Of a stretch of 39,167 nucleotides of DNA, positions 22,724 to 39,167 are shown one piece after another (the first letter of the stretch is position 1; every line of letters starts with the position of its first letter). This stretch comes from Candidatus Nanoarchaeia archaeon (GTDB taxonomy: Archaea > Nanobdellota > Nanobdellia > Woesearchaeales > ARS49), in NCBI GenBank assembly GCA_041484255.1, contig JBGPHE010000003.1:1-39167 (forward strand), read 5' to 3'. Position numbers and translations under genes: made by a program. Below the pieces are notes generated by a model. It ran no database searches. It saw nothing but the letters and a program-made list of their open reading frames with translations, and had not been told where the DNA came from.

Positions 22724-22743
22724 GCATCCTGCGGTCGGAAGCG

Positions 22744-22785
22744 CATTTAAACGTTTCGGAACAGTACGACCATAAAGTTTAAAAG
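22744..22785. promoter_or_regulatory. Divergent TATA boxes: TTTAAATG (- strand, 22751-22744) and TTTAAAAG (+ strand, 22778-22785)
   Basis: 20-23 nt from the flippase and GT-C start codons; CATAAAG precedes the + strand box. Confidence 0.7.
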
Positions 22786-22807
22786 TGCAGGCGCGCGGGA
22801 ATAACCC

Positions 22808-24562: not shown

Positions 24563-24598
24563 AAATCTTTATATAGAGCACTCGGGGAATTGACGAAC

Positions 24599-25468
24599 AT
24601 GCGCAAACAAAAGTTCGAGCACAATGTATGCAACTTGTGCGGGGCCGACGACACGATCACGCTGTATGTCACGAAAGGCAAGTCTAAATTTTCGTACCCT
24701 CACCCGCTCCCCTATGTGAAATGCACCCAGTGCGGGCTGGTGTACACGAACCCACGGCCGCCAAAGGAAATCATCGAGGAGCAATATGAATCAGAGCACT
24801 ACCGCGACCAGCTGCCCAAGGATGCTGCCCGCTATCTGCGCAAAATCCTGACCAACAGCGTCAACCGTCTCGTGTTCGTGGAAAAGTACAAAAAAGGTTC
24901 GCGCCTGCTCGATGTGGGGTGCGCGCAAGGCAATTTCATCTCGGTTGCGCGGCTCAAAGGATGGGATACGTATGGCGTTGAGGTTTCCAAGAAGTTCTCG
25001 AGCATCGCGAAGGACTTGTTTAAGCTTAACGTGTTCACCGGAACGCTTGAAGACCAGACGTTCGAGCCGGAATTCTTCGATGTTATTACTTGCTTCGACG
25101 TGATCGAGCACCTGCGCGACCCTTTCGCATACTTGAAGCATTGCCACGCGCTGCTGAAGAAAGGGGGCATCTTCCTGGCGGAAACCTGCAATGTGCGCTC
25201 CCTTCATCAACTGGTGCTCGGCAAGCGATGGCAGTCGGATCCGTCTCAACACTTGTACCTTTTCACCCCGAAGACCTTACGCAAGATAGCGGAAAAGGCA
25301 GGGTTCTCGGTCATCACGATCAACCATCGCACCGGCTGGGAATCGATCTTTGCAAAGACGGATATTAATGAAGGCCCTTTCCGCTATATCACAAGCTTAG
25401 CGTTCCGCATCGCATCCCGGCTGCTCAGAAAGGAAGCGATGATCGTGCTGGTCGCGGTGAAAAAGTAA
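24599..25468 (+). CDS. Class I SAM-dependent methyltransferase with N-terminal Zn site
   Basis: CNLCG...CTQCG.VYTNPRP, LLDVGCAQG, FDVITCFDVIEH, HLYLFT; TTTATATA at 24568-24575. Confidence 0.9.
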   Translation: MRKQKFEHNVCNLCGADDTITLYVTKGKSKFSYPHPLPYVKCTQCGLVYTNPRPPKEIIEEQYESEHYRDQLPKDAARYLRKILTNSVNRLVFVEKYKKGSRLLDVGCAQGNFISVARLKGWDTYGVEVSKKFSSIAKDLFKLNVFTGTLEDQTFEPEFFDVITCFDVIEHLRDPFAYLKHCHALLKKGGIFLAETCNVRSLHQLVLGKRWQSDPSQHLYLFTPKTLRKIAEKAGFSVITINHRTGWESIFAKTDINEGPFRYITSLAFRIASRLLRKEAMIVLVAVKK

Positions 25469-25507
25469 GAAGATTTAAAAGAAGCCCGCAGTGTTCTCGT
25501 CGTGAAG

Positions 25508-26554
25508 ATGGCGCAGAAACAACTCACATTCCTGATCACCGGCGGCGCCGGCTTTCTCGGCCACAATCTCGCGCGCTACTTGCTTGCCAAAGGGCAGAAA
25601 GTGCGCACGGTAGATCTCGGTCCGTTTGACTATCCTGAAATCAAGGGCGTCCAGCACTTCCAGGGCGACATCCGCAACAAGGACGTCTTGCGCCGCGCCG
25701 CAGCAGGCGTCGATGTTATCGTCCACTGCGCCGCGGGCTTGCCGCTGTGGAAGCCGCAGGAAATCAAGTCCGTGAACATCAACGGCACCAAAACAGTGCT
25801 TGAGGTCGCGCACGAGCTCGGCATCGAGCGCGTCATTCACATTTCTTCGACTGCAGTGTACGGCATTCCTGACCATCACCCGCTCGTTGAAGGTGACAAG
25901 CTGCAGGGCGTCGGTCCGTATGGCTACAGCAAGGTTGTCGCGGAGAAAGTCTGCGAATCCTACCGCAAAGTCATGTGCGTTCCGATGCTTCGCCCGAAGT
26001 CATTCATCGGCGCGGGCCGTTTGGGCGTGTTTGACGTGCTGTTCGACTGGATCCGGCGCGGCAAGAACATCCCAATCGTCGGCTGGGGCAACAATCTTTA
26101 CCAATTATTGCACGTTGAGGACTTGAACCAGGCAATCTGGCTCGTCTCGACCGCTCCCGCGAAGATTGCGAACGACACGTTCAATATCGGCGCGGAAAAG
26201 TTCGGCACGATGAAGAAGGACTATCAAGCCTTGCTGAATTATGCGGGCTTCCACAAGCGCGTCATCGGCACGTCGCCGTTCCTCGTCATCAATGCGCTCC
26301 GCGTGCTTGAATTCTTCAAGCTCTCGCCGTTGTACAAGTGGGTGTATGAGACTGCGGACAAGGATTCGTTCGTTTCCATCGAGAAGGCGAAGAAAGTGCT
26401 CGGCTTCAGGCCGAAGTACAGCAATGTAGATGCGCTCATTGACAGCTATAAGTGGTATGTGCAGCACTACAAGGAATATCAGGGCAAGTCAGGCGTCACG
26501 CACCGCGTTCCGTGGAAGCAGGGCGCACTCGTGATTATTCGCGCGTTCTTTTAA
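25508..26554 (+). CDS. NAD-dependent epimerase/dehydratase (3-beta-HSD-like extended SDR)
   Basis: LITGGAGFLG, HISSTAVYG, YGYSK; start at ATG 25508 or GTG 25502. Confidence 0.9.
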   Translation: MAQKQLTFLITGGAGFLGHNLARYLLAKGQKVRTVDLGPFDYPEIKGVQHFQGDIRNKDVLRRAAAGVDVIVHCAAGLPLWKPQEIKSVNINGTKTVLEVAHELGIERVIHISSTAVYGIPDHHPLVEGDKLQGVGPYGYSKVVAEKVCESYRKVMCVPMLRPKSFIGAGRLGVFDVLFDWIRRGKNIPIVGWGNNLYQLLHVEDLNQAIWLVSTAPAKIANDTFNIGAEKFGTMKKDYQALLNYAGFHKRVIGTSPFLVINALRVLEFFKLSPLYKWVYETADKDSFVSIEKAKKVLGFRPKYSNVDALIDSYKWYVQHYKEYQGKSGVTHRVPWKQGALVIIRAFF

Positions 26555-27483
26555 TGCGGAGAAACCATTTCTTTTGCGTACTTTGAATAAGGACTGTGCC
26601 ACGTCTTGTGAATAGCTTCCTTGAACGGCGTGTATTTCACGCCGAACTCTGCTGACCAGTTCTCGACGGGGAATTCGTCGCCGGCGACCAGCGCCTGCAT
26701 TTGTTCGGGTGTGAAGACGGTTTTGCGCGTGATGAACGAGTACACGCGGAGCATCAGCGCGAAAACAGGCAGCGGAAGCGGAAGAAAGACACGCTTCCAG
26801 CCGCGCGTTGTGCAAATAATCTTGAGCATGTCGATGTACGGTATCTTTTCGTGGCCGATAATGTTCCAAATCTTGTTTTCGGGCTTGCGTTTCGTCAAAG
26901 CAACAATGACATTGCACATGTCGTTGACATACAGCGGCTGACGCAAGTACTTTCCCGAGCCAGGAACAGGAACAATCGGTATTTTTTCCATAAAGCGCGT
27001 AATCCAGCCCAAATGCTTGGCGTCAAAGCAGCCGTACATGAGCGGCGGGCGCAGAATCGTGTGCGGAACGCGGCTTTTCACCACAAGTTCTTCGCCTGCG
27101 CGCTTGGTGCGCGTGTATTCGTCCTTCGCGACGGAAATAACGACCGATGAGCTCAGGTGAATGAGATTCTTGACCTTGTTTTTCTCGCACACGGCAAGAA
27201 TGTTCTTGACGCCCTGCACGTTGCTCTGCACGAACGGTCCGGCAGACGCTGCGGCAATCTGCGCGTGCAACTGAACGACGCAGTCTGCGCCCTTGAACGC
27301 GTCTTCCCACGAGCCGTGCGTGCTGACATCAGCAGTGATGCACTGAACAGAAGGATTGAGCTGCTGCAACAAGCGGATATTTCTGTTTCTATCAATAGCG
27401 GTAACACGGTAGCCTTGCTTCACCAGCAGCGGAACGAGATTCTGGCCGACAAGTCCTGCTGCGCCGGTCACAATAACCTTCAT
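26551..27483 (-). CDS. NAD-dependent epimerase/reductase (atypical SDR)
   Basis: VTGAAGLVG, HLSSSVV, YTRTK, LRPPLMYG, PGSGKYLRQPLYV.D. Confidence 0.88.
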   Translation of the reverse strand: MKVIVTGAAGLVGQNLVPLLVKQGYRVTAIDRNRNIRLLQQLNPSVQCITADVSTHGSWEDAFKGADCVVQLHAQIAAASAGPFVQSNVQGVKNILAVCEKNKVKNLIHLSSSVVISVAKDEYTRTKRAGEELVVKSRVPHTILRPPLMYGCFDAKHLGWITRFMEKIPIVPVPGSGKYLRQPLYVNDMCNVIVALTKRKPENKIWNIIGHEKIPYIDMLKIICTTRGWKRVFLPLPLPVFALMLRVYSFITRKTVFTPEQMQALVAGDEFPVENWSAEFGVKYTPFKEAIHKTWHSPYSKYAKEMVSPH

Positions 27484-28751
27484 GCAAGGTCCTCGAGAAT
27501 GTACTGCGCGACTTTCTCGCCGCTTTCCAATGCGACGTCCATGTTGCGGATCTTCGGGAACGTGACTTGGATGCCTGCGTTGTAGAATCCCTGCACCGGC
27601 GTGCGATACGACGGAGCGTACTTGCCGTAGTCCTTGTCATAGACAGGCTCAGCATACTTGTCGCGGAACACGAACGCCCACTTGACGTCCATCGTCGGGA
27701 AATACTTCTTCAGCGCGCCCAAGTACAAATCTTTGATCTCGTCGTCGGGCTTGGGCAGGTCTTCGATCGAGCCGCCGTAGCGGATGACCCAGGAAACCTT
27801 GCTTTTGTACTTGTCGACCAGCACGGAATGCTGATACAAGATGTGAATGCGCTCGCCTAGGAAGTTGACCCAGTAGTTTTCCGCATCCAGGAAGTCTTTG
27901 GTGCCGAACAGCACGCCGACAACGGGCGTGTAGCGCAATTTCTTGATGTTCTTGACGTATTCGTCAGGCAATCCCTTGGCAAAGTGAATGAATTCAGGAA
28001 CGGGAATGGTGTTGATGAGCGCGTCAAACACTTCGGTGTGCTCTTTGCCGCCGACCGTGTACGTGATGACCTTCTTTTGTAAATCAAGCGAGTTGATTGT
28101 CGCTTTCATGCTGATTTTGCATCCCTTGCGGACGACGTCTTGCTGGAGTCCATCGATCATTCCCTGGATGCCCTTCATCGGATACGTGAACAGGTCGTTG
28201 AATTCGCGTTCTTTCATGCGCCACGCGAACTGTTTCATCGAAATCTGGCTCAACGGGATGTTGAATTTGTTCCTGCCGTACAATTGGTAATACATTTTCT
28301 GCGTCACAGACTTGCCGCAGGCCTTGTTCAGGTACGTTTCCGCGTCCAAATCGTCCGGAAGCTTGCTCGGATCCATGAAATAGGAGACATAGATGCCGAA
28401 AAGCCCGAAGCGGACCTTCTCGATGAAGTTGAGATAGCTGAATTTCAAGAACTTCCACGGCTTGTTGATGTTGTAGACCTTGTCTTTGAGCGCGACGGCG
28501 AGATTGATACGCTTCCATTCGTTGTTGCCCATCAAATCGTAGCGCTTGAGGTATTCAAGCGTCTTCTTGTTCGTGCGGACGATGTGGTGGTTGAACCGCG
28601 GGATGAGCTCGCCTTCGACTTCGAAGCTGCTCGCCAGTCCGCCCATGAACGGCGCTTTCTCGAGAATAGTAATCTCTGCCTTACCTGAGTCCAGCAGTTT
28701 GTCTGCTGCGGTTAATCCTGCAAGACCGCCCCCTAAAATGATGACGCGCAT
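27480..28751 (-). CDS. FAD-dependent oxidoreductase (amine-oxidase/HemY-like family)
   Basis: ILGGGLAGLTAA, LEK....GGLA, RFNHHI, RNMDVALESG; ATGA overlap with the SDR gene. Confidence 0.88.
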   Translation of the reverse strand: MRVIILGGGLAGLTAADKLLDSGKAEITILEKAPFMGGLASSFEVEGELIPRFNHHIVRTNKKTLEYLKRYDLMGNNEWKRINLAVALKDKVYNINKPWKFLKFSYLNFIEKVRFGLFGIYVSYFMDPSKLPDDLDAETYLNKACGKSVTQKMYYQLYGRNKFNIPLSQISMKQFAWRMKEREFNDLFTYPMKGIQGMIDGLQQDVVRKGCKISMKATINSLDLQKKVITYTVGGKEHTEVFDALINTIPVPEFIHFAKGLPDEYVKNIKKLRYTPVVGVLFGTKDFLDAENYWVNFLGERIHILYQHSVLVDKYKSKVSWVIRYGGSIEDLPKPDDEIKDLYLGALKKYFPTMDVKWAFVFRDKYAEPVYDKDYGKYAPSYRTPVQGFYNAGIQVTFPKIRNMDVALESGEKVAQYILEDLA

Positions 28752-28773
28752 GCTGTTTTACACAGAGGAACTG

Positions 28774-28808
28774 TTTATAAAGATATCGTCAAGAGCAAAG
28801 TTTAATAA
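28774..28808. promoter_or_regulatory. Divergent TATA boxes: TTTATAAA (28774-28781) and TTTAATAA (28801-28808)
   Basis: 22 and 23 nt from ATGs 28751 (-) and 28832 (+). Confidence 0.72.
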
Positions 28809-28831
28809 ATCGCCCCGAAGTCGCATTCTTT

Positions 28832-29692
28832 ATGGGAATTGCCGATTACGTCAAAGTTCTGCGCCCGCAGCAGTGGTACAAGAACCTGCTTGTGTTTTTG
28901 CCGTTGATTTTCGTGGGCAAAGTGATGGACTGGCCGCTGGTCTGGATCACGTTCCTCGGCTTTGTCAGCCTCTGCTTGTGTTCCTCGTTCAACTACATCA
29001 TCAATGACATCGTTGACCAGAAGAAGGACCGCGTGCACCCAGAAAAGCGCACGCGCCCGATTGCATCAGGAAAAATTGCAGTTCCTGCCGCGCTCGTGCT
29101 TGCATTCGTGCTGCTCGCGCTCGGCCTGCGTCTCGCGTACGTGCTTGACAAGGAGTTCATCTACGCGGTCGCGTTTCTGGTCGTGTTGACGCAGGTGTAT
29201 TCGTTCTTCCTGAAGAAAATCGCGTTCGCGGACATCATCACGGTCGCGATTAACTTTGTCGTCCGTGCAGGAGCCGGAGCGTTCCTGCTGAATGCAGTCA
29301 TCTCGCCTTGGCTCGTGCTGTGCACGTTCTTCTTCGCATTGTTCCTGCTTGCTGCAAAGCGCTATGCTGACTTGCTCTTCCTGGGCAAGAACGCGGCAAG
29401 CCACAAGGAAACGTTCAAAGTCTACACCAAAGAGGTCGCGAACGCGCTGATGATTATCGCGACCGCATTGCTTATCGCGATGTACAGCGCGTATTCATTG
29501 CTCGGCGAGCACCGCTGGCTCGCGTTTTCGCTTCCGTTCGCGTTGTTCGTCATCTTCCGCTACTTTTCGTTGACGTATGCAGGCTCGCCCATCGCGCGCC
29601 ACCCGGACAAGGCGTTCAGGGACGTGCAAATGGTCATCGGCATGCTCTTGTGGGCGCTCTCGGTATTCGCGGCGATTTACCTGCACCGCTAA
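28832..29692 (+). CDS. UbiA-family polyprenyl-phosphate 5-phosphoribosyltransferase (DPPR synthase-like)
   Basis: LRPQQWYKNLLVF, YIINDIVD..KDR.HPEKR.RPIASG, YSFFLK, F.VRA.AG, KRY: signature of the DPPR-synthase subfamily. Confidence 0.88.
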   Translation: MGIADYVKVLRPQQWYKNLLVFLPLIFVGKVMDWPLVWITFLGFVSLCLCSSFNYIINDIVDQKKDRVHPEKRTRPIASGKIAVPAALVLAFVLLALGLRLAYVLDKEFIYAVAFLVVLTQVYSFFLKKIAFADIITVAINFVVRAGAGAFLLNAVISPWLVLCTFFFALFLLAAKRYADLLFLGKNAASHKETFKVYTKEVANALMIIATALLIAMYSAYSLLGEHRWLAFSLPFALFVIFRYFSLTYAGSPIARHPDKAFRDVQMVIGMLLWALSVFAAIYLHR

Positions 29693-29699
29693 CGCAAGC

Positions 29700-29707
29700 T
29701 TTATAAA
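29700..29707 (+). promoter_or_regulatory. TATA box of the 5S rRNA gene (TTTATAAA)
   Basis: About 20 nt upstream of the 5S helix I. Confidence 0.72.
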
Positions 29708-29726
29708 CACCCTTCGGTGATTTCTC

Positions 29727-29840
29727 GTTGGACGGTCAAAGGGGCTGGGTTCCACCCGATCTCATTCGAACTCGGCAGTTAAACCAGCCTCCGTATCCGA
29801 CGGTACTGCGTTACGCGGGAAATCGGGTAAGCTGTCCACC
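29727..29840 (+). rRNA. rrf: 5S ribosomal RNA (archaeal type, shortened, about 112-114 nt)
   Basis: Helix I TGGACGGT/GCTGTCCA; CCCGATCTCATTCGAACTCGGCAGTTAA (helix III/loop C); GGTACTG...CGGGAAA; exact ends approximate. Confidence 0.92.
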
Positions 29841-29854
29841 TTTATTTTTCTCTT
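29841..29854 (+). terminator. Oligo-T archaeal terminator after 5S rRNA
   Basis: TTTATTTTTCTCTT immediately after helix I. Confidence 0.6.
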
Positions 29855-29899
29855 GCTTGTGTCAAAACCTATAAGTAGCTGTTGCGCGGCCATAATCGC

Positions 29900-30154
29900 A
29901 TGCATGGCTACTATGGATGCGGCGGAGAATCGTCGCGTGAGCTCTTTATGCGCGTGAATCATCTTGAAGAATTAATCGAGCAGTCGGCAAAGCCGCGAAA
30001 GCAAGCGCCAAGCGCTCAACCCGTTGTGTACGAGAAGCCTGCGGAAGAAACGGTGCAGGAAATAACTCCTTCGCTCAACTATGGCGGGCGTGTCTTAGAG
30101 AAAAGCAAGCCGGTCGATGAGAATTCTACGATCACTAATGTTCTGCCCGAATGA
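29900..30154 (+). CDS. Small hypothetical protein (84 aa)
   Basis: ATG 29900 is 24 nt after CCTATAAG; fills the gap; no recognised motif. Confidence 0.45.
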   Translation: MHGYYGCGGESSRELFMRVNHLEELIEQSAKPRKQAPSAQPVVYEKPAEETVQEITPSLNYGGRVLEKSKPVDENSTITNVLPE

Positions 30155-30902
30155 CGTCTCTCTTCGTGATTGCGAGATAGACGACTGTTGCTAAAATGGC
30201 GACAAGGAAGATTCCGCTGGTGATGGTCGCGCCCAGCCCGAGACCGCCTGCGTCAGAAGCTTGCGACAAATAGTCGCCCAACGACGCGCCCAAAGGACGC
30301 GTCAGGATGTACGCAATCCAGAACGCGAGAACGCCGTTCAGCTTGAAGCGCAGGTGGGCAACGGCAACGAGTGCGATCAATGCGCCGAAGATGAGCAGCG
30401 ACGGCAGATAGCCAAGCTCGAACTGCTCCGCAACAAGGTCTCCTGCCGCGGTGCCTAATGCAAAGGTAAACAGGATGGCAAGCCAATAGAATGCCTCTCG
30501 GCGCCGAGTAAAGATGGTATGGATGGACAGCGTCCGTTCTTTGATATACCACACGGTGAACGTCGCCGCTAAGGCGACAGCGAAGATGAGGGTCGTCAAT
30601 TCCAGAGGCACGCCCAAGTTATCAGTAAGATTGTCTGTGAGCAGCGTGCCGAAAATGCTGATCAGAACCACGGCGAGCCAATAGATTCCGGGCTTGTATT
30701 TCTTTGACTTGAATTGGAAGAAAAGCACAACGGCCAGGAGCGCGCCCATGACATAGCTTGTGTTGGTCAGGCCCAGACTGAGCGTCTCGTTCAGGAAGTC
30801 CGCAAAGGTCTCGCCTACCGTCGTACACAGGATTTTAATGGTCCAGAAGAACAAGGTGACTTCAGGGACTTTGTTCAAGAGTTGTCTGCCAACATCGCGC
30901 AT
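30135..30902 (-). CDS. COG4705/DUF347-repeat membrane protein
   Basis: NKVPEVTLFFW.IKILCTTVGETFAD, RREAFYWLAILFTFALGTAAGD, FWIAYILTRPLGASLGD. Confidence 0.9.
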   Translation of the reverse strand: MRDVGRQLLNKVPEVTLFFWTIKILCTTVGETFADFLNETLSLGLTNTSYVMGALLAVVLFFQFKSKKYKPGIYWLAVVLISIFGTLLTDNLTDNLGVPLELTTLIFAVALAATFTVWYIKERTLSIHTIFTRRREAFYWLAILFTFALGTAAGDLVAEQFELGYLPSLLIFGALIALVAVAHLRFKLNGVLAFWIAYILTRPLGASLGDYLSQASDAGGLGLGATITSGIFLVAILATVVYLAITKRDVIRAEH

Positions 30903-30949
30903 GCTTCACAGCGCACATCATCCCATTATAAACTTTGTGAACGATGTCC

Positions 30950-32026
30950 TTAGAATTCCACAGTCGCGTCGCCGGTGGCTTCGTTCAGTTCCTTGATCTG
31001 CTTGAACTTGGCCTTGACGTCTTTCCAGCTCAGCGTTTTCTTCGCTTCGACAATGTCGGTCAATAACTGGTTGACTTCCTGGTAGTGTTCGTACAGCCAT
31101 TCGCCTTTCTTGTGCTCCTCGACCGCTTTCTGCTCAAGTTCGTGCAAACGCTTGTGCTGCATCACAATCATTGTCTCAATTCGCTGCAGTTCTTTCTTCA
31201 CAGGAGTCAGTTTCTGCTCTTTGATGGCTTCCGCAGGCATGGCGAACATTCTATCGAGCGCGGCGCCGAATTTGTCGATGTTCTCGCGCTTCTTGTTTGC
31301 GTAACAATCAAAGAGTATTGGCACGGCATCGATGACGATGCTTTCGTCGGAGATGATTTGCGGCCGGAGAGGCTGCGCAAGGAGGAGTTTGAGGATGGAC
31401 AGCAGCTCGCTGGCCTGCTCAGGTGCTGTTTTGTCGGTCGCGGGAACGCCTGCGCGGACGCAAAGCTCTTCGGCAAGCACTTTTCCCAGGCCGAATTGCA
31501 CGGCAAGCGTCTTCGACACGTTCTCGGTGGATTGCGCGAACCGCAGGGCAAAGTCGTGCTCGCTCATGTGGAACGTGTCAGGCGTATCGGGAAGCTGATA
31601 GGGCTTGCCGCGAGTAACTCTGCTATTCAGCGCGAGCGCGGTAATCACGACATTTTCGCCGTCGGTCAGCACGACATTACCGCGGCCGAAGAGCTCCAGA
31701 TAGAGCACGAAGTGCGTGTCAGAACGGTTGACGTGCAGCGCGAGAATTCTTTCAGAGCACACTTGCTCGAGCTTGATGACTTTGCTGTTGCCGATGAGTT
31801 TGCGCAATTGCGCGGCAAAGGGGTGGATCTGGTCTGGCGTCGGAGGGCGCTCGATGGGCGTCCAGGCCTTTCCCGGAGCCGCCTGCAGCAGCACTTTGTT
31901 CCCAAAGGTCAGCAGCACGCCGCGGTCTTCGAGGATGTAAATCTTGTCAAGGCGTTCATTGACTAAGGTTTGCAGTTCGAGGACAAGAAAGTGCAGGTCA
32001 AACGAGGTAATTTCGGTTTTTGTCAT
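30950..32026 (-). CDS. NFACT/RqcH-family protein: NFACT-N, HhH and coiled coil only
   Basis: SFDL..LV.EL..L...LDKIY, FAAQLRK, ERI, LELFGRGNVVL.D, GLG...AEELC.RAG, GEWLYEHY. Confidence 0.82.
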   Translation of the reverse strand: MTKTEITSFDLHFLVLELQTLVNERLDKIYILEDRGVLLTFGNKVLLQAAPGKAWTPIERPPTPDQIHPFAAQLRKLIGNSKVIKLEQVCSERILALHVNRSDTHFVLYLELFGRGNVVLTDGENVVITALALNSRVTRGKPYQLPDTPDTFHMSEHDFALRFAQSTENVSKTLAVQFGLGKVLAEELCVRAGVPATDKTAPEQASELLSILKLLLAQPLRPQIISDESIVIDAVPILFDCYANKKRENIDKFGAALDRMFAMPAEAIKEQKLTPVKKELQRIETMIVMQHKRLHELEQKAVEEHKKGEWLYEHYQEVNQLLTDIVEAKKTLSWKDVKAKFKQIKELNEATGDATVEF

Positions 32027-32386
32027 TTAGTGCATTGCGCGGCCCATGCCGATGAGCGCGACGCCGATGATGATACACCCAATACCGACCCACTTGTATT
32101 TATTCATTTTCTCTCCCAAGTACTTGACCGAGAGTGCGCACGCCCAGATATAGGACAGCGCGGTGATAGGGTACAGGACTGAAAGCTCGCCGTACTTGAG
32201 CCCGATCACGAAAAACACGGCGGAAATGCCGAAAAACGCGCAGCCGAGCAGCGCGTTGTAGTTCTTGATGAGCTTGCGCGGGTTCAGCGAGAACGTCGCC
32301 GCTCCTTTCTTCATGAAAATAGGCCCGAGCGCGGAAATGAGCGTAGCAAACGCGACGATGCCGATGGCAAACGTTGAGGTAGTCAC
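32027..32386 (-). CDS. Small 4-TM SMR/EamA-like (ArnE/ArnF-like) membrane protein
   Basis: GELSVLYPITALSYIW, YLGE.MN..KWVGI..II.GV. Confidence 0.85.
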   Translation of the reverse strand: MTTSTFAIGIVAFATLISALGPIFMKKGAATFSLNPRKLIKNYNALLGCAFFGISAVFFVIGLKYGELSVLYPITALSYIWACALSVKYLGEKMNKYKWVGIGCIIIGVALIGMGRAMH

Positions 32387-32745
32387 GGCGTCACCACTTG
32401 CGTATGCTTGTGCGCGCCTTTGCTGAGCACAATAACACCAAAGATAATCACAATCATTCCATAAATTTTCAGCGAATTCAGCGATTCACCGAGATAATAG
32501 TGCGCAAGGATGCTCACCCAGACGTAATTGGTCGCGTACATCGGGAACAGCACGGAAACTTCGCCGGTCTTGAACGAGTGGATGAGGATAAACGCCGCGA
32601 CAATGTGGAACGAGAACCCGATCAGCAGCGGCCAGTTGGTAAAAATCACCGGCAGCGACTTTGCGCCGATCTTCCAGAACAATTGGCCGAGAGACGTTAC
32701 AATCGTGCAGAAAATCACCAGACAGACGTCGGCGAACTTGGTCAT
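32383..32745 (-). CDS. Small 4-TM SMR/EamA-like (ArnE/ArnF-like) membrane protein
   Basis: GQLFWK, GEVSVLFPMYATNYVW, YLGESL. Confidence 0.85.
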   Translation of the reverse strand: MTKFADVCLVIFCTIVTSLGQLFWKIGAKSLPVIFTNWPLLIGFSFHIVAAFILIHSFKTGEVSVLFPMYATNYVWVSILAHYYLGESLNSLKIYGMIVIIFGVIVLSKGAHKHTQVVTP

Positions 32746-34488
32746 TTATTCCTTGTCCTCGTAGAGAATCTGGACCATTGCCGCGTACGCGGGGCGCGTG
32801 ATGAACACGCCGATGCTGACGCCGATGATGTTCGTGAGCGCGAATCCCTTGAGCAGGCCTGCGCCCGCAAACAGTAGGGGCAGCATGGCGACGACTTCAG
32901 TCATGTAGCCGCTGAAGATGATGAAGAATGCGCTCTTGAGGCGGTCTTTCCAGTTCAGCGTGGTTTCCTTGTTGCCGCTGAGCGTTTCGCCCGTGATGAC
33001 GATCTGGTCGTTCACGCCGGTGCCGACCGAGACAATCAGTCCCGCGATGGCCGCGAGGTCGAGGTTCCAGCCGAACAATGCGTACAAACCGAGCACGAGC
33101 GTGACTTCGAGCAGGCTGGTCAGGATCATGGGCACGGCGAGCTTGATTTTGCGGTAGACTGACAGGAGAATCGCGAGAATGACTGCAGCTGCAATGATCG
33201 CGGCAGTCCAGGCGTTCCTGATGAATTCCGCGCCCAGGGTGGGCGAAATGGTGTCGATGCGGACGATGTCAAGCTTGACCGGCAACGAACCCGTGACGAG
33301 CACGGTCTGCAGGCGCTTCATGTCTTCGAGCGAAGCGCGCATTGCTTCTTCGCGCGAGACGCCCGCGCCGGAGCCGGTAATCGCGATATCGGTCACCGGC
33401 CTGCCGCGGAGGTCGTCTGCGATGTTCAATGACTCGACTTCCTGGTCGTCGAGGTAAAGCGTGAGGGGCAGGCTGAGGTAGCCGCCGCCGTTCTTGGTAA
33501 TAATACTCAATCCCTTGGTGAGCGTGGCCTGGCGCTGGGCCGCTTCGGGTGATGTGGAGATGCTAAACTGGTAACCGCATGCCCAGCCTCCGGTGGCGGT
33601 GCCGCAGCCTCTGCGCGGGTCGATGCCGGAGCATTCTGCGGTGCGGCAGACGTACGTGATGTCCTGTCCGCCGCGGAAGACCGTGTCGTTGCCGATCTTG
33701 GCTTCGAACTTGCCCTGGCGCGCGAGCAAGTCCTTGACTTCTTCTTCGGTCGCGCCGGCGATTTCAACGAGGATGAAACGGTTGGGCTCGCCCAGGAATG
33801 ACGGCTTGTCCTGCACGGTTGTGACGACGATGTCGCTGAGGCCGTAGACATTGAGCCGCTGCTTGAGCGAGTCGACCATGATGTTGAGCGTGTCTGCCGT
33901 GACCGTTTCGGCGGGCTTCAGGAGCACACGGGTGCCGCCCTGCAAATCAAGTCCCTTGCGGAGATTGGTCGTGGGAGCGTTGTCCACCTTCAGTCCGAGG
34001 TCTTCGGCGCCGAGCGGCTTGCGCGCGGTCTGCGCAACGGACATGGTCTTTTCAAAAGTCTTGTTGACGAGTGTTACCGTGCCGTTGACGGTCTGGTTGA
34101 CCTCTTGGGTCACGTTGACCAGTTCGTCCTTGGTCGTGTTGAGCTCGATGATTTGGTACGCTTGCTTGACCGTGAGCTTGTACTGGCCTTTGGTCGTCTT
34201 GATTTGCACTGTCTGATTGACGCGCAGGTCTTTGACGAAATTGTAGTAATCAAGCGCGCTCGTGATGGGCTTGTTGTTCATGCTGGTGATGACTTCTTTG
34301 CTGAGCGGCGTCGCGGTCGGCGTGGGGTTTGCGATGCCCACGAGCGCGGCAGAGCTGTTCTTGACGACGCTCTTGATGACTGCGCCCTGGTTCCACGGCG
34401 TGGGCCTGATGGCGAACAGCATGAAGAGGACGCACACAAGCAGGATGATGACGCGCCAGTTGGTGAACAGCTTGCGGACTTTACCCAT
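32746..34488 (-). CDS. secD: Protein translocase subunit SecD (archaeal type, with PDZ-like insertion)
   Basis: GLDLQGGT, RLNVYGL, GSLPV, ISPTLG, LDLAAIAG...GTGVNDQI, LKGFA; start at ATG 34488 or GTG 34497. Confidence 0.93.
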   Translation of the reverse strand: MGKVRKLFTNWRVIILLVCVLFMLFAIRPTPWNQGAVIKSVVKNSSAALVGIANPTPTATPLSKEVITSMNNKPITSALDYYNFVKDLRVNQTVQIKTTKGQYKLTVKQAYQIIELNTTKDELVNVTQEVNQTVNGTVTLVNKTFEKTMSVAQTARKPLGAEDLGLKVDNAPTTNLRKGLDLQGGTRVLLKPAETVTADTLNIMVDSLKQRLNVYGLSDIVVTTVQDKPSFLGEPNRFILVEIAGATEEEVKDLLARQGKFEAKIGNDTVFRGGQDITYVCRTAECSGIDPRRGCGTATGGWACGYQFSISTSPEAAQRQATLTKGLSIITKNGGGYLSLPLTLYLDDQEVESLNIADDLRGRPVTDIAITGSGAGVSREEAMRASLEDMKRLQTVLVTGSLPVKLDIVRIDTISPTLGAEFIRNAWTAAIIAAAVILAILLSVYRKIKLAVPMILTSLLEVTLVLGLYALFGWNLDLAAIAGLIVSVGTGVNDQIVITGETLSGNKETTLNWKDRLKSAFFIIFSGYMTEVVAMLPLLFAGAGLLKGFALTNIIGVSIGVFITRPAYAAMVQILYEDKE

Positions 34489-35383
34489 GGTGTTCACCGT
34501 GCTTTGCCGCCTTGCGCTCGAGGTACCAGCGCAGGATGCCTGCGTTCTGGAGCCAGGTGTAGATGATGTCGAAAATCATGCCGATGGAGATGATGAGCAT
34601 AATCTGCTTGACGACGTCGGACTGCACGACGATGTGGCCGACGGTCGTGGCCGCAAAGGACGTGAGCGACATCAGGAGTCCGGTCTGCATGGTGCCCGTC
34701 ATGCGCTGGAAGACCGTGCCGGTCTTTCCGCGCAGCACTTTCGTGGTGAGCAGGATGTCCGTGTCCACCGAGTAGCCGATGAGCATGAGCAGCGCGGCAA
34801 CGCCTGCGGTGGAGAGCTTGATGCCGAGCAGGTCGATGACGGCGAGCACGCTGATGATGTCGGAGATTGCGCACAGGATGATGTAGAAGCTGGGCATCGG
34901 CACGCGGAACGTGATGAAGACGACGATGCTCATGAAGAGGAATGCGACGGCGATGGCGATGAGGGTTTGGCGGTAGAAGCTTTCGCCGAGCGAGGAGCCC
35001 ATGACTTCGCTGGAGAACGTGCCGGGCTGCATGCTGAAGCCGTGCTCCTTGAGCGCGCCGATAAGCTCGTCTTCGGTGACGTCAGAAGCTTCGATGATGA
35101 TGCCTTTCATCTGGCCGGCTTCGGTGAAGCTGCGGACGCTGACGTCGGCATGCGGGAAACGCAAGAGCATCGCGGTCTGGATTTCGTCCACGTTCGCTTG
35201 CGCGGTCGGGATGGTCATCGTGAGGCCGCCCTTGAGCGAGACGCCCTTGGAGACGAACTCTCCGGTGACTGCCTTGTGATGGAACAGGACGCCGATGCAC
35301 GCGAAAAGGAGCACGAAGCTAAGGATAAGAAGCAGTTTGTACTGCTTGTCGTAGATGTTCAGTAAAAATGACTTTATTCCCAC
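34481..35383 (-). CDS. secF: Protein translocase subunit SecF
   Basis: GVSLKGG, GSSLGESF, AALLMLIGYSVDTDILLT; AGGTGA SD before GTG. Confidence 0.93.
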   Translation of the reverse strand: MGIKSFLLNIYDKQYKLLLILSFVLLFACIGVLFHHKAVTGEFVSKGVSLKGGLTMTIPTAQANVDEIQTAMLLRFPHADVSVRSFTEAGQMKGIIIEASDVTEDELIGALKEHGFSMQPGTFSSEVMGSSLGESFYRQTLIAIAVAFLFMSIVVFITFRVPMPSFYIILCAISDIISVLAVIDLLGIKLSTAGVAALLMLIGYSVDTDILLTTKVLRGKTGTVFQRMTGTMQTGLLMSLTSFAATTVGHIVVQSDVVKQIMLIISIGMIFDIIYTWLQNAGILRWYLERKAAKHGEHHG

Positions 35384-35416
35384 ACAATCACCTTACGACG
35401 TGAAGAACGCGGTGCT

Positions 35417-35451
35417 TTTTTAAATCTTGCGCAAGACGCGCGTTGCGCAAG
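35417..35451 (-). promoter_or_regulatory. secF TATA (TTTAAAAA 35424-35417) abutted by two TTGCGCAA palindromes
   Basis: TTGCGCAA at 35427-35434 and 35443-35450; CTTGCGCAA/TTGCGCAAG inverted repeat. Confidence 0.5.
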
Positions 35452-35468
35452 GCTCGCTGAACCGCTGT

Positions 35469-37085
35469 TCAGCGCTGCTTTTGACTTTGCGCGAGCGCAG
35501 CCTTGATGAAGCCGTAAAACAGCGGGTTTGGCTTCTCCAATCGTGACGTAAGCTCGTTGTGCGCCTGTGTCGCCATGAAGAACGGGTGTCCGGGCAGTTC
35601 GATGAACTCGACGAGGCGGCCGTTCTCGGACATGCCTGAGAGCCGCATGCCGTTCACGCGGAGCCGATCATGATAATCAGGGTTGACTTCGAAGCGGTGG
35701 CGGTGGCGTTCCCATGCTTCGGGTGAGTTATATAGTTGTGCGACCTGGCTATTCTTCTCCAACAGAGCCTTGTACGCTCCCAAACGCATCGTGCCGCCCA
35801 TATTCGTGACGGTTTTCTGCTCGGGCATGATGTCGATGACCGGGTGAGGCGTGGTCGGCTCGTTTTCCGTGGTGTTTGCGCCGTTGAGCTTGCAGACGTT
35901 GCGCGCGAACTCGATGACGGCGAGCTGCAGGCCGTAGCAGATGCCCAGATACGGCACTCCGCGCTCGCGCGCTTCCTTGATGACGCTCATTTTTCCTTCG
36001 ACTCCTCGCGAACCGAAGCCGCCGGGCACGAGCATGCCATGCACGCCTTCCAATGCCTGCGCGGGAGAGATCTTGCCCTCCTCGACGTCGGTTGTTTCAA
36101 TCCAGCGGACATTGACCTTGGTATCGTGATGCGCGCCGGCGTGCGTGAACGCCTCGATGATGCTCGCGTACGAGTCCTTGAGCGCGGTGTACTTGCCGCA
36201 GATGGCGATGGTGACTTCGTGCTTGGGATTTTGGATGCGCTGCACGAGCGCTTCCCATTCCTTGATGTCGGGCGCGTGGCTGAGCTTGAGCTTGTCGTTG
36301 AGGATGTCGACCATGCCGTCCTTGAGGAACATCAACGGAATTTCGTAGATGCTGTCGACGTCCCTGCCGCTGATGATGTGCGAGGGCTCGATGTCGCAGA
36401 ACATCGCGAGTTTTTCTTTTGCGCTCGGGGGCAGTGCGTCCTTGCTGCGGCAGATGATGATGTCAGGCGTGATGCCTTTCTCGCGCAGCAGCGCGACATC
36501 GCGCTGGGCGGTCTTGGTCTTGGGCTCGCCGACGGAGTGTAAGAACGGGACATACGTGAGGTGCACGTACGCGATATTGTCCTGGCCGACGTCTTTCTTG
36601 AGCTGGCGCGCGGCCTCGACAAACCAGCTGTTCTCGATGTCGCCGAGCGTGCCGCCGATTTCCATCAGCACGAGGTCGGGCTGCTCCTGCTTGACGAGCG
36701 TGAAGATCCAGTCCTTGATTTCGTTGATGACGTGCGGGAAAATCTGGATGGTCTTGCCCAGATACTCCCCTTTGCGCTCCTTGGAGATGACGCGGTTGAA
36801 GATTTTGCCCGAGGTGAGGTTCCAACTGGACTTGCACTGCACGCCGAGGAAGCGCTCGTAGTGACCGAAGTCCATGTCGACTTCGCCGCCGTCGTTCAGG
36901 ACGAAGACTTCGCCGTGCTCGACCGGGTTCATCGTGCCCGGGTCGACGTTCAAATACCCGTCGCACTTGATGGGAAGAATCTTGGTTCCATTCTTCAATA
37001 ATCGTCCGAGAGAAGCCGTCGCGGTGCCTTTGCCCAAACCGGAGAGCACTCCGCCCGTAACCACGACGAATTTTGTTTGGTGCAC
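35469..37085 (-). CDS. pyrG: CTP synthase
   Basis: VVTGGVLSGLGKG, DGYLNVDPGTMNP.EHGEVFV, KTKTAQ, VPGGFG.RG.EG, LGICYG, ERHRHR; GTG start at 37085. Confidence 0.97.
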   Translation of the reverse strand: MHQTKFVVVTGGVLSGLGKGTATASLGRLLKNGTKILPIKCDGYLNVDPGTMNPVEHGEVFVLNDGGEVDMDFGHYERFLGVQCKSSWNLTSGKIFNRVISKERKGEYLGKTIQIFPHVINEIKDWIFTLVKQEQPDLVLMEIGGTLGDIENSWFVEAARQLKKDVGQDNIAYVHLTYVPFLHSVGEPKTKTAQRDVALLREKGITPDIIICRSKDALPPSAKEKLAMFCDIEPSHIISGRDVDSIYEIPLMFLKDGMVDILNDKLKLSHAPDIKEWEALVQRIQNPKHEVTIAICGKYTALKDSYASIIEAFTHAGAHHDTKVNVRWIETTDVEEGKISPAQALEGVHGMLVPGGFGSRGVEGKMSVIKEARERGVPYLGICYGLQLAVIEFARNVCKLNGANTTENEPTTPHPVIDIMPEQKTVTNMGGTMRLGAYKALLEKNSQVAQLYNSPEAWERHRHRFEVNPDYHDRLRVNGMRLSGMSENGRLVEFIELPGHPFFMATQAHNELTSRLEKPNPLFYGFIKAALAQSQKQR

Positions 37086-37137
37086 AGCTACGTAGTTTCG
37101 TGGGAGTTTAAATGTTTTTAGAGACTGGAAACTACGG

Positions 37138-37683
37138 TTAGAAAAATGCGTTCCAGAGACCCTGATACACCTTGAGTCCGTCAAATCCTGGGATGGGTAG
37201 CATGTTGAAGATGAACAGGAAGCCGTTGATGCGCTGCGTCATGTGCCAGAAGAACAGCCAGCGCCGCGAACGTGTTGCGTTTTGCGTCGTGACGTACTTC
37301 GCGACAAGATACAGCACGCCGTTGAGCGCGGGACCGGCGAACGCGACGAGCGCGGACTGCAGCGGTAGGAGCGACGCGGGAATTTCGACATAGCCGGGCA
37401 CGAAAAATATGATGGGCGAGTGCACGAGCTTGAGCACGATGCCGATGACGAGGAATGTGTACGCCGCGTGGAATGTCGCCTGCGCGCCGAACAGTATTGC
37501 GGTGAACTTGTGCGCGAGCTCGTGGAAGATCAGCGCAGGAGCGGTCACGAGGCACGCGAGCCAGAGCTGTTTCCAGTCAAAGCCGTACGTCTGCCGCGGC
37601 AGTCGCAGGAAGTCCATGAAGATATAGCCGACCGCGACGGTCATGATGAGGATGTCGAGCAGTTCGCGGAGCGTGATGAGCAT
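37138..37683 (-). CDS. Site-2 protease (peptidase M50) family Zn metalloprotease
   Basis: HELAH, AFAGP..N, FNMLPIPGFDG; start ATG 37683, about 22 nt after a TATA box. Confidence 0.9.
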   Translation of the reverse strand: MLITLRELLDILIMTVAVGYIFMDFLRLPRQTYGFDWKQLWLACLVTAPALIFHELAHKFTAILFGAQATFHAAYTFLVIGIVLKLVHSPIIFFVPGYVEIPASLLPLQSALVAFAGPALNGVLYLVAKYVTTQNATRSRRWLFFWHMTQRINGFLFIFNMLPIPGFDGLKVYQGLWNAFF

Positions 37684-37720
37684 GGAATCCAAGGAAGAAT
37701 GTCGATTTATAATTGTTTCT

Positions 37721-37756
37721 GAGAGAAAAATTGCGCTGCCTCGGATCGAGGCAGCG
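37721..37756 (-). terminator. Hairpin plus T-tract terminator after the basic micro-gene
   Basis: Perfect 10-bp stem CGCTGCCTCG-ATC-CGAGGCAGCG (37734-37756), then CAATTTTTCTCTC on the - strand. Confidence 0.75.
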
Positions 37757-37765
37757 GGTAAATGA

Positions 37766-37828
37766 TTATCTCTTTGAGCGCTTCTTCTTTGATGAGCGCT
37801 TCTTGCTCTTGCGTTTCTTGGCTGCCAT
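37766..37828 (-). CDS. 20-aa highly basic peptide MAAKKRKSKKRSSKKKRSKR
   Basis: ATG...TAA read directly; GAGGTG SD 5 nt upstream (37839-37834); TATA CTTATATA (37881-37874); hairpin terminator downstream. Confidence 0.75.
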   Translation of the reverse strand: MAAKKRKSKKRSSKKKRSKR

Positions 37829-37862
37829 AAGCACACCTCTTTTTTTCTGTTTTGATGATGTA

Positions 37863-37890
37863 CGCGCTGCGAGTATATAAGCGTAGCGCG
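37863..37890 (-). promoter_or_regulatory. TATA box of the micro-gene enclosed in an imperfect inverted repeat
   Basis: CGCGCTGCG-AGTATATAAG-CGTAGCGCG (8 of 9 complementary). Confidence 0.5.
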
Positions 37891-37891
37891 G

Positions 37892-38848
37892 CTACACGAG
37901 CATGCGGGCTTTGAGCTGCTGGTCGATGGCGAAGACCGCGTCAGTAAAGTTCTCGCGCGTGATGCTTGGGAACCCGGCGAGCCTCGCTCCTGCGGCGTAC
38001 GCGTGCCCTCCGCCGCCCAAGAGCCGCGCAATATCCGCGAGGTTCAATGCGCAATCGTCTCGGCGCCGGAAGCTGACGCGTCCGTTGCGGTAGAGAACGA
38101 CAGAAACGTCAACGCCGGTGTGCTTGTCCAGGATGTGCTGCCCCGCATCGGCAGTAGAAAGCAGCGCCGGCGCAAGCGTGAAGCCGAAGCGCGTGTTCAT
38201 CACGTTCTTCACGACCAAATGCTTGATGATGTCCTGCAATGCCGCTGCTTTCTTGACGAGGTAGTCTTTGCGCACCTGCTCGAACTGGTCGCTCCAGAGC
38301 ACGCCGCGCGCGAGCGAAGCGATTAATTCTTTGAGGTCAAAGCCTGACGCGATGAGGTCGGCGAGCTGTTCGGATCGCTTGTCGTTGCGTTCCCAGAACG
38401 TGATGTCGTGCGCGATGCGCGCGAGGTCCTGCGCGACGACATCGTTCGGCAGGAAGCGCTGCTGCGCGAGCTCGGCGGCGCATTTCTTCTGCGCGGGAAG
38501 CGTTCCGCCCTGCAAAGGCCCGGACAAATCCATGGTGTGCGCGGTGCGCTTCAGGAGCGCGAGCGTTTCCGCGTCGTACGCGTGGTGGCTGTTCCAGTAC
38601 GCGATGCGGTTGCGCACCGTGATCGCGCTAAGCCGCTGGGAAAAAGCAGAAAGGCTGTCCGGAAGGAAGTCGACGATGAACACCAGGTCGCCGGACAGCG
38701 CAGACATCGCCGTGAACTGCTCCTGCGCGTTCTCGAAGTCGATGAGCCCGCCGAGCTTGATGTCTTTCTCTTGCAGGCGCGCCGAGCGGAACAGGATGGC
38801 GGCAGCCGCGATTCCGTCGAGCTGCGGAGAACAGTAGACGACGTGCAT
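37892..38848 (-). CDS. DHH/DHHA1-family phosphoesterase-like protein, degenerate active site
   Basis: LDGIAAAA, FIVDF, WNSHH (in place of DHH), KCAAEL, SFR, GGGGHAYAAG. Confidence 0.8.
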   Translation of the reverse strand: MHVVYCSPQLDGIAAAAILFRSARLQEKDIKLGGLIDFENAQEQFTAMSALSGDLVFIVDFLPDSLSAFSQRLSAITVRNRIAYWNSHHAYDAETLALLKRTAHTMDLSGPLQGGTLPAQKKCAAELAQQRFLPNDVVAQDLARIAHDITFWERNDKRSEQLADLIASGFDLKELIASLARGVLWSDQFEQVRKDYLVKKAAALQDIIKHLVVKNVMNTRFGFTLAPALLSTADAGQHILDKHTGVDVSVVLYRNGRVSFRRRDDCALNLADIARLLGGGGHAYAAGARLAGFPSITRENFTDAVFAIDQQLKARMLV

Positions 38849-38879
38849 ACGCGAATTGAGGCGTTTGCCGTATATAAAT

Positions 38880-39167
38880 TTACGGCATAATGCGGTAGAA
38901 ATGGTACAGCACGCGGTCCACTGCCTTGATGAGGTCGAGTTCCTGGCCCTGCAGGGTGAGGCAGTTACCCATCAGCCGCGCTTTGGTCTCGTTCGACGTA
39001 TGCAGGTAGATGACTGCCTTGTCGTCCGCGCAGGTCACGATGGGGTGTCCGTCGCACGCGCCGGATAGGTTCTTGGTGCACGCCGACTGGATTTGCGCGC
39101 CCAGGCCGCGCACGAGGTTGAGCCCGAGCTCGCCCACGGCGACGCCGAGATACTTGAAGTTGGTTCC
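38880..39167 (-). CDS. Hypothetical Cys-containing protein, C-terminal part; 5' end outside window
   Basis: Frame open to window end (GTNFKYLGVAVGELG...); four Cys; ends AVDRVLYHFYRIMP. Confidence 0.7.
   Translation of the reverse strand, partial: GTNFKYLGVAVGELGLNLVRGLGAQIQSACTKNLSGACDGHPIVTCADDKAVIYLHTSNETKARLMGNCLTLQGQELDLIKAVDRVLYHFYRIMP

Follow-up and report, generated by a model that had tools for sequence, protein, structure and literature searches.

A standalone polybasic micro-gene with a conserved 3' hairpin in Woesearchaeales

The window analysed here, a stretch of 39,167 nucleotides, is contig C3 of the genome (G000) of a DPANN archaeon, as the initial annotation had supposed; the genome comprises 1,002,371 bases in 112 contigs and is estimated to be 92% complete. 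On its minus strand lies a standalone monocistronic micro-gene of 20 codons, equipped with its own promoter, Shine-Dalgarno (SD) motif and terminator and missed by gene callers (Table 1). Related units, each with a short polybasic open reading frame (ORF) followed by a hairpin, are found in several families of the order Woesearchaeales. The reading frame is maintained by selection at the protein level, and the micro-ORF is in all probability translated. What the product does is a more tentative matter: we lean towards an independent micro-gene that makes a charge-driven polycation binding DNA or RNA, with a hairpin that would terminate and stabilise the mRNA, a view that is the likeliest of those considered although its odds are slightly below even.

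Table 1. The micro-gene unit and its neighbours, in window positions
Feature	Position	Strand	Remarks
TATA box TTATATA	37874..37880	-	from sequence; ~46 nt 5' of the ATG
Shine-Dalgarno AGAGGTG	37834..37840	-	from sequence; 5-nt spacer to the start codon
Micro-ORF, 20 codons + TAA	37766..37828	-	ATG 37828-37826, TAA 37768-37766; encodes MAAKKRKSKKRSSKKKRSKR
Hairpin CGCTGCCTCG-ATC-CGAGGCAGCG	37734..37756	-	perfect 10-bp stem, 3-nt loop, conserved CUGCC/GGCAG core
T5 run, archaeal termination signal	37726..37730	-	3 nt past the stem; a T-run also lies 3' of the hairpin in aligned units
Second TATA box TTATAAA, for the M50 gene	37706..37712	-	22 nt 5' of the M50 ATG, leaderless type
Peptidase M50 gene, 181 aa, downstream neighbour	37138..37683	-	Pfam PF02163, E = 7.8e-10; context, outside the unit
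DHHA1-domain (DHH/RecJ-like) gene, upstream neighbour	37892..38848	-	Pfam PF02272, E = 7.4e-07; context, outside the unit

The initial annotation had described a lysine- and arginine-rich ORF of 20 residues with a TATA box, a GAGGTG SD and a 10-bp hairpin followed by a T-tract, and every one of these elements is present on the minus strand. It had also placed the ORF between DHH and M50 orthologues, in agreement with the Pfam-identified DHHA1 and M50 genes that flank the unit. The peptide, MAAKKRKSKKRSSKKKRSKR, consists of 9 lysines, 4 arginines, 4 serines and 2 alanines besides its initiator methionine; it has no acidic and no hydrophobic residues, and a net charge of +13. Judging from the distance between TATA box and start codon, the leader is about 20 nt long. 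Nine bases separate the stop codon from the hairpin, and CAATTTTT comes right after it. A further TATA box lies past the T-run and ahead of the M50 start, so the M50 gene has its own promoter of the leaderless type. CTP synthase comes after M50, which puts pyrG two genes downstream of the micro-gene. An antisense ORF of 55 codons (37713-37880, plus strand) was considered and set aside as the phenylalanine- and leucine-rich complement of the lysine codons, devoid of signals of its own.

Within its genome the micro-ORF stands out in composition. It has the highest lysine fraction of all 5467 ATG-initiated ORFs of 12-60 codons in G000, and it is one of only 11 among them in which lysine and arginine make up at least half of the residues. 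The earlier claim that a strong SD is atypical of this genome is roughly right, given that a 6-mer SD precedes 53 of the 1226 ORFs of at least 150 codons, an ORF set that is a noisy proxy for genes. The hairpin is just as distinctive: its fold has a free energy of -19.5 kcal/mol (z = -5.4; none of 200 shuffles as good), it ranks first among 32 terminator-like sites in a scan of window positions 20000-39167, and in all 1.0 Mb of the genome only three perfect stems of at least 9 bp, this one included, have T5 after them.

The initial annotation had singled out the DHH-M50 site of related genomes as the place where lysine- and arginine-rich micro-ORFs with SD and terminator might recur, and there they are. 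A synteny survey, in which the M50 protein was searched in 41 related genomes, returned 30 loci, and at nine of these such a micro-ORF, 17-34 codons long, sits immediately 5' of M50. The M50 proteins of these nine loci are about 45-61% identical to that of the window. GAGGTG is located 5-9 nt before the start codon in all nine, with no SD requirement imposed on the search, and all nine likewise have, farther 5', a box of the TTTAAATA or TTTATATA type in the position of the window's TATA box. Of the 77 genomes in the family (f1), 16 matched a pattern built from the hairpin and T5, each at exactly one site, and the reversed control pattern matched none; leaving out the unpublished genomes G015, G366, G367 and G368 the family count is 12 of 73. 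These figures are to be read as combining 25 genomes surveyed by synteny with a remainder surveyed by hairpin pattern alone, so that carriers with a diverged hairpin, such as G020, may be missed. In all 16 family units an SD-led polybasic ORF of 10-57 codons precedes the hairpin and an M50 gene follows it; in the family units a ATTATAAA-type box is likewise kept in the stretch from the hairpin to the M50 start, and the DHHA1 gene is also found upstream in four of the six other family loci tested. Pattern matches that did not qualify include one in the family genome G331, where the combination of KK-stop and hairpin belongs to the C-terminus of a longer protein, and two fetched from G001 that are not pure polybasic micro-ORFs, one of them being a 16-codon polybasic ORF that ends in a Cys motif.

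Beyond this family, a relaxed hairpin pattern matched 58 of 401 genomes of the order, compared with 8 matches in 6 genomes for the control. Among the 29 new loci returned, eight have an SD-led polybasic ORF that ends 11-25 nt before the hairpin: four in family f93, three of which start with GTG, three in f11 (31, 45 and 63 codons) and one in f88. The f88 unit has 6 codons only, and its product, MAKKKK in G111, is the shortest form seen. At a ninth locus, in G142, the ORF is doubtful and contains glutamates. A class-wide search for the KK-stop and hairpin pattern added one f93 unit of 48 codons with a GTG start; its five matches in other orders all fall within ordinary genes. Across the order, a pattern of SD and start lacked specificity, matching 146 of 301 genomes, since numerous genes begin with MAKK. 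Among the genomes sampled, the unit with the CUGCC/GGCAG hairpin is thus seen in Woesearchaeales only. The neighbours change with the family, from DHHA1 and M50 in f1 to endonuclease III in f88 and f11, and to a 400-aa protein without assignment plus a TPR protein or a ZIP transporter in f93. It follows that the unit is autonomous and no appendage of M50.

An open frame is by itself weak evidence of coding in purine-rich DNA, which has few stop codons, and the case for translation comes from the comparison of frames. In the frame set by SD and start codon, 579 codons from 24 units contain neither an acidic residue nor a stop, whereas the +1 frame of the same units has 42 Asp or Glu codons and 23 stops and the +2 frame 162 and 30, respectively. 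With published genomes alone the acidic counts are 0 of 485 in frame 0 versus 42 and 133 of 465 in the other two. The 24 units start with ATG (21) or GTG (3) and end with TAA (22) or TAG (2), and the stop always closes the basic tract, 6-25 nt before the hairpin. All 24 have GAGGTG upstream of the start codon at a distance of 5-9 nt, a figure that is partly so by construction as the motif was required by unit extraction. In the copy from G000, a genome of 57% GC, arginine is encoded by CGC three times and serine by TCA three times, so that basic charge has been kept where purine richness has not. The order of AAA and AAG codons furthermore avoids long A-runs: the longest runs sum to 141, compared with 196 +/- 8.6 expected, and none of 2000 synonymous shuffles was as low (116 versus 147.7 +/- 7.0 in published genomes alone). 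As the units stem from related genomes, their counts do not represent independent events; the pattern nonetheless holds uniformly in four families.

The hairpin is conserved in its own right. The consensus fold of 25 aligned units has eight pairs, of which the five basal CUGCC/GGCAG pairs are invariant and the remaining three, one below the core and two proximal to the loop, covary (U-A, U-G or C-G; C-G, A-U or U-G). The invariance of the core is partly circular, given that most units, including all outside family f1, were found with a hairpin pattern; a CTGCCT(C/T)...G(A/G)GGCAG stem with a T-run is present, however, in eight of the nine units found by synteny alone. A ACCTTTCA block 5' of the hairpin and a TTCTCATTCTC block 3' of it are also kept at the DNA level across genera, synteny-found units included. 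Oligo-T alone suffices for transcription termination in archaea, and the conserved stem is superfluous for a plain terminator. That its sequence is nevertheless conserved suggests an extra role, be it in stabilising the mRNA or as a recognition site, and the conserved core suggests recognition by some factor too. At the gathering score Rfam matched only 5S rRNA in the whole window and left the micro-gene unmatched; between 37650 and 37920, the best matches at E <= 10 reached 18-20 bits, where the gathering scores are 50-70. One of the weak matches, to PyrG_leader (20 bits, gathering score 65), overlaps the hairpin, pyrG being two genes downstream; it was treated as chance.

What is encoded varies greatly. 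The 20 units from published genomes comprise 272 Lys, 69 Ala, 59 Arg, 28 Val, 23 Ser, 16 Thr, 8 Pro, 7 Gly, 2 Leu and 1 Ile, and no Asp or Glu. Long forms are built of KKKxV-type repeats of 4-5 residues, and the only sequence conserved among carriers is the M-A-(A)-K-K start. Lengths range from 6 to 63 codons overall and from 10 to 57 at the orthologous DHH-M50 site, and such a range at a single site fits a non-specific electrostatic role. The gene also comes and goes. In its genus three of eight genomes are carriers. G002 has a decayed copy in which the hairpin remains, the SD is gone and the frame now encodes Glu, Gln and Val. G004 is devoid of about 300 nt that extend from the micro-gene promoter to the M50 promoter, with flanks almost identical to those of the carrier G005; the M50 branch lengths of this pair are 0.008 and 0.047. 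Mapped onto a low-resolution tree of M50, carrier status takes eight changes, at least four of them forced by well-supported branches. The micro-gene is, in other words, dispensable on short time scales. Contigs of four DNA runs contain no difference and no indel within the micro-ORF, which says little given that M50 is just as invariant in them; in one run, positions 37758 and 37760, which fall between the stop codon and the hairpin, are substituted. All 24 runs listed for window positions 37100-38900 are DNA, mostly sediment metagenomes, with no RNA run among them, and the high expression suggested by the initial annotation is a prediction. Carriers and non-carriers have histone genes about equally often (12 of 16 and 46 of 61, respectively), which gives no hint of the peptide standing in for an absent chromatin protein.

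Searches of sequence families place the peptide nowhere. For the G000 peptide, Pfam yielded no family at E <= 10, NCBIfam nothing and phmmer against PDB sequences no match at E <= 10; a homologue search with a 45-aa form scored 610 candidates, none at E <= 0.001. The sole Pfam match of eight longer orthologues links a 57-aa form to HC2 (E = 0.87; 10.1 bits versus a cut-off of 40), and in a protein atlas a 63-aa form falls into unnamed clusters, the nearest named being HC2 at a 15% share, with a pLDDT of 0.52. Neither likeness to HC2, the closest neighbour in composition, comes anywhere near significance. Exact look-up of ten such peptides, the G000 eL41/eS32 included, in a collection of 15 billion proteins found none. 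As far as listings and abstract openings reveal, the literature yielded no description of such genes, and no paper on protamine-like proteins of the archaeal nucleoid was found. The possibility that the micro-gene is eL41/eS32 itself was discarded on the grounds of no PDB or Pfam match and of an orthologue that sits elsewhere, which bears out the earlier remark that the peptide does not match eL41. The orthologue is a 36-codon ORF on contig C7 (G000:C7:6553-6663, minus strand), residues 1-33 of which align with archaeal eL41/eS32 chains (6sw9_0, E = 2.8e-5). This ORF itself has no Pfam or NCBIfam match, and a genome search with PF05162 (Ribosomal_L41) is correspondingly insensitive, finding nothing in G000 despite the presence of eL41.

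Four other explanations deserve to be weighed against a charge-driven polycation, and two of them question whether the peptide matters at all. If the unit were a small non-coding RNA, its A/G-rich body and hairpin would be functional and the ORF incidental. The DNA-level conservation of the hairpin core and of its ACCTTTCA and TTCTCATTCTC flanks across genera is what such an RNA would predict, and purine-rich tracts that lack stops in any frame make an open frame poor proof of coding. Yet only a single frame is free of acidic codons and stops, the units retain ATG or GVN-type start contexts and the SD spacing, the basic tract always closes with the in-frame stop, arginine codons have switched from AGA to CGC in a manner that preserves charge and not purine content, and no Rfam family reaches its gathering score; an RNA of this kind is very improbable, the least credible of the readings considered here. 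Somewhat better, if still quite unlikely, is the notion of a weakly selected or selfish low-complexity ORF, for instance what is left of a once longer lysine-repeat (H1-like) gene shrinking by slippage, with little present function here. Its patchy occurrence (16 of 77 genomes in the family, 3 of 8 in the genus), the decayed copy in G002, the clean deletion in G004 and the extreme length variation, down to 6 codons, all speak for it. They have to be set against signals and frame that are intact in 24 of 24 units from four families, a codon order that avoids slippery A-runs, and a basic character that survived the shift to 57% GC. The ORF is also identical in three sediment metagenome assemblies in which DHH is polymorphic, a weak argument as M50 is equally invariant.

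The other two accept translation and differ on its purpose. A lineage-specific ribosome- or RNP-bound micro-protein would fill a pocket in rRNA in the manner of eL41/eS32, bS22, bL37 or Thx, to which the peptide is alike in size, charge, strong SD and stand-alone expression unit; the 36-codon eL41 of this genome is likewise without a Pfam or NCBIfam match. Known ribosomal micro-proteins keep their length and sequence, whereas this one spans 6-63 codons with nothing kept past M-A-(A)-K-K; the eL41/eS32 slot is already occupied by the C7 ORF, and the gene is patchy within one genus and has been deleted cleanly and recently. In its favour, excerpts of two papers relate that tiny polybasic ribosomal proteins went overlooked for years (PMC10081302, PMC10085706). 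The ribosome-bound, eL41-like role proposed in the initial annotation has lost ground through the length range, the low complexity and the clean loss in G004, and we regard it as unlikely, albeit less so than the other three alternatives. A cis-acting leader peptide or attenuator, finally, would have translation of the lysine-rich ORF control the terminator and hence read-through into the co-oriented gene. The architecture is suggestive: the stop lies 6-25 nt before the hairpin, in or near the footprint of a terminating ribosome, the ORF is rich in lysine codons, a co-oriented gene is found downstream in every context seen, and a duplex of about -10 kcal/mol is possible between the SD region (GAGG-UG-CAG) and the 5' arm CUGCCUC. 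However, the local hairpin, at -19.5 kcal/mol, is much the more stable structure, and cognate duplexes between SD and arm are no better than non-cognate ones (-9.93 versus -9.45 kcal/mol). The downstream genes moreover differ (M50, endonuclease III, TPR, ZIP) and none is related to lysine, those of the M50 family each have their own TATA box past the T-run, ORF length and stop-to-hairpin spacing vary widely, and archaeal termination can do with oligo-T. Attenuation is a poor prospect, on a par with the weakly selected ORF.

The accessory polycation fits a patchy, length-variable, low-complexity gene that can be lost better than a protein fixed in a ribosomal pocket. Under this model, the TATA promoter would give rise to a transcript of approximately 120-130 nt, made up of a leader of some 20 nt, the strong SD, the 20-codon ORF, the GC-rich hairpin and the oligo-T terminator. 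The ORF would be translated into an intrinsically disordered polycation of charge +13 that acts on polyanions through charge only, its candidate target being either RNA or genomic DNA, which it would compact or neutralise in the nucleoid much as histone H1 tails or protamines do. The peptide would be a non-essential accessory factor of tunable length, and the 3' hairpin probably terminates and stabilises a very short mRNA. The likeness to an H1 tail or protamine, put forward in the initial annotation, appears to be the best available reading: it accommodates length variation, low complexity and loss more readily than an eL41 analogue, and it is drawn from composition and evolutionary behaviour. 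Apart from the lack of a family or structure match and the even distribution of histone genes, two observations sit uneasily with it. Forms of 6 codons, such as MAKKKK in G111, are hard to credit as useful polycations, and the conserved stem is not accounted for by the polycation model. A bolder version would treat the units as an undescribed class in Woesearchaeales, in which oligolysine polycations are encoded by dedicated mini-transcripts and serve as a length-tunable 'encoded polyamine or protamine' that neutralises or compacts DNA or RNA in ultra-small cells, and in which the CUGCC/GGCAG hairpin lets the peptide or a partner monitor its own abundance, with feedback on the stability or translation of the mRNA. 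Taken as a whole this scheme is speculative and, on balance, unlikely.

Standard gene callers do not see genes of fewer than 30 codons, and the cell biology of DPANN archaea is almost unknown. The micro-gene, whose promoter, SD and terminator signals could hardly be plainer, would add a new and very simple component to their chromatin or RNA biology. With a peptide that is trivial to synthesise, it also allows a direct test of the extent to which charge by itself can be what a gene provides. A question of a different kind comes from the hairpin, namely why a terminator keeps its sequence across families.

Several known systems bear comparison with the unit. Leader peptides of the trpL/hisL type share with it a short ORF rich in one amino acid, a hairpin and T-run just after it and a co-oriented gene downstream; they differ in that the comparison of cognate and non-cognate pairings lends no support to an antiterminator in the micro-gene unit and that its downstream genes have their own promoters, are unrelated to lysine and depend on the family. 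The ribosomal proteins eL41/eS32, bS22, bL37 and Thx are similar in having 20-40 residues, more than 50% of them lysine or arginine, and in being often unannotated, whereas the micro-gene is conserved neither in length nor in sequence and is lost in close relatives. Protamines, which are arginine-rich and eukaryotic, are comparable as very short, extremely basic and fold-less proteins with a presumed role in charge neutralisation; the micro-gene peptide is dominated by lysine (9 Lys, 4 Arg), some orthologues are without arginine, and there is no homology. The remaining comparison is with the C-terminal tails of histone H1 and with chlamydial Hc2/HctB (PF07382, HC2). Hc2 is well over 100 residues long, compared with 20 for the G000 peptide, the micro-gene units score below the profile cut-off (the G000 peptide matches no family), and DNA binding of the peptide is a prediction; to our knowledge, a sequence-conserved 3' hairpin is not a feature of H1-like or Hc2 genes. 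What these proteins have in common with the micro-gene peptides is a lysine-rich, disordered chain with Ala, Ser, Thr, Val and Pro spacers, free of acidic residues and made of short tandem repeats that expand and contract.

The micro-gene, a 20-codon polybasic ORF that lies between a gene for a DHHA1-domain protein (DHH) and an M50 peptidase gene, has been altered or removed in close relatives. The copy of the unit in one of these (locus L010) is decayed: the ATGGCA start and the CTGCCTTGCGAGGGCAG hairpin are retained, the SD is lost, and E, Q and V codons have entered the reading frame, which continues into the M50 gene. Two further relatives, G004 and G005 (loci L006 and L007, respectively), have nearly identical flanks, and G004 is devoid of about 300 nt relative to G005, reaching from the micro-gene promoter to the M50 promoter, so that M50 in G004 is preceded by a single TATA box. 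This absence is a clean and recent deletion. At the G005 locus (L007/L094), the leader region upstream of the micro-ORF contains an additional AAAGAGGCAG block and a GTCGAC-TTCG-GTCGAC hairpin, both 5' of the real SD, and a second long hairpin follows the terminator, ahead of the M50 promoter.

The source genome, G000, encodes an eL41/eS32 orthologue elsewhere, which has its own TATA-like box and is recognised by neither Pfam nor NCBIfam. It also encodes a second polybasic micro-ORF with the TATA-like sequence GATTATATCC upstream and a cysteine after the basic tract. The Woesearchaeales contain several polybasic micro-ORFs, SD-led and 10-40 codons long, that end in a cysteine or a cysteine cluster, with C-termini such as ...KKCSCC, ...GCCGCC, ...CGCCCGHC, ...AICTYC and ...TCRWC; in L039 and L040 a pure oligolysine ORF is followed in tandem by a Cys-ending polybasic ORF.

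Coordinates of ORFs, loci and RNA genes in the source genome and its relatives
Feature	Location	Strand	Remarks
eL41/eS32 orthologue, 36-codon ORF	G000:C7:6553-6663, outside the window	-	E = 2.8e-5 to archaeal eL41/eS32 chains
Second polybasic micro-ORF of G000, 19 codons	G000:C105:151-210, outside the window	-	MRRKMKRKKNKKKKCGGQS
Decayed copy of the unit	L010 (G002), between DHH and M50 genes		
5S rRNA gene	window 29728-29840	+	Rfam scan, 67 bits
Cys-ending polybasic micro-ORFs	L033, L040, L041, L050, L053 (order relatives), L154 (G001:C12)		

Besides the 5S rRNA gene, the Rfam scan of the whole 39-kb window detected no 16S or 23S rRNA, and a tRNA scan of the same stretch found no tRNA. A weak PyrG_leader match (37724-37799, minus strand; 20 bits against a gathering score of 65) overlaps the terminator-like hairpin, and pyrG, the CTP synthase gene, is located two genes downstream; the match was judged to be due to chance.

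The histone-fold domain PF00808 has no match across the whole G000 genome and is present in all seven other genomes of the genus; the lack of a match is probably an assembly gap, the G000 genome being 92% complete. Within the same order, a relative (G246:C40, locus L032) encodes a 159-codon protein with the N-terminus MAAKKK and AKKA/PKKA repeats, which is a full-size H1-like lysine-repeat protein.
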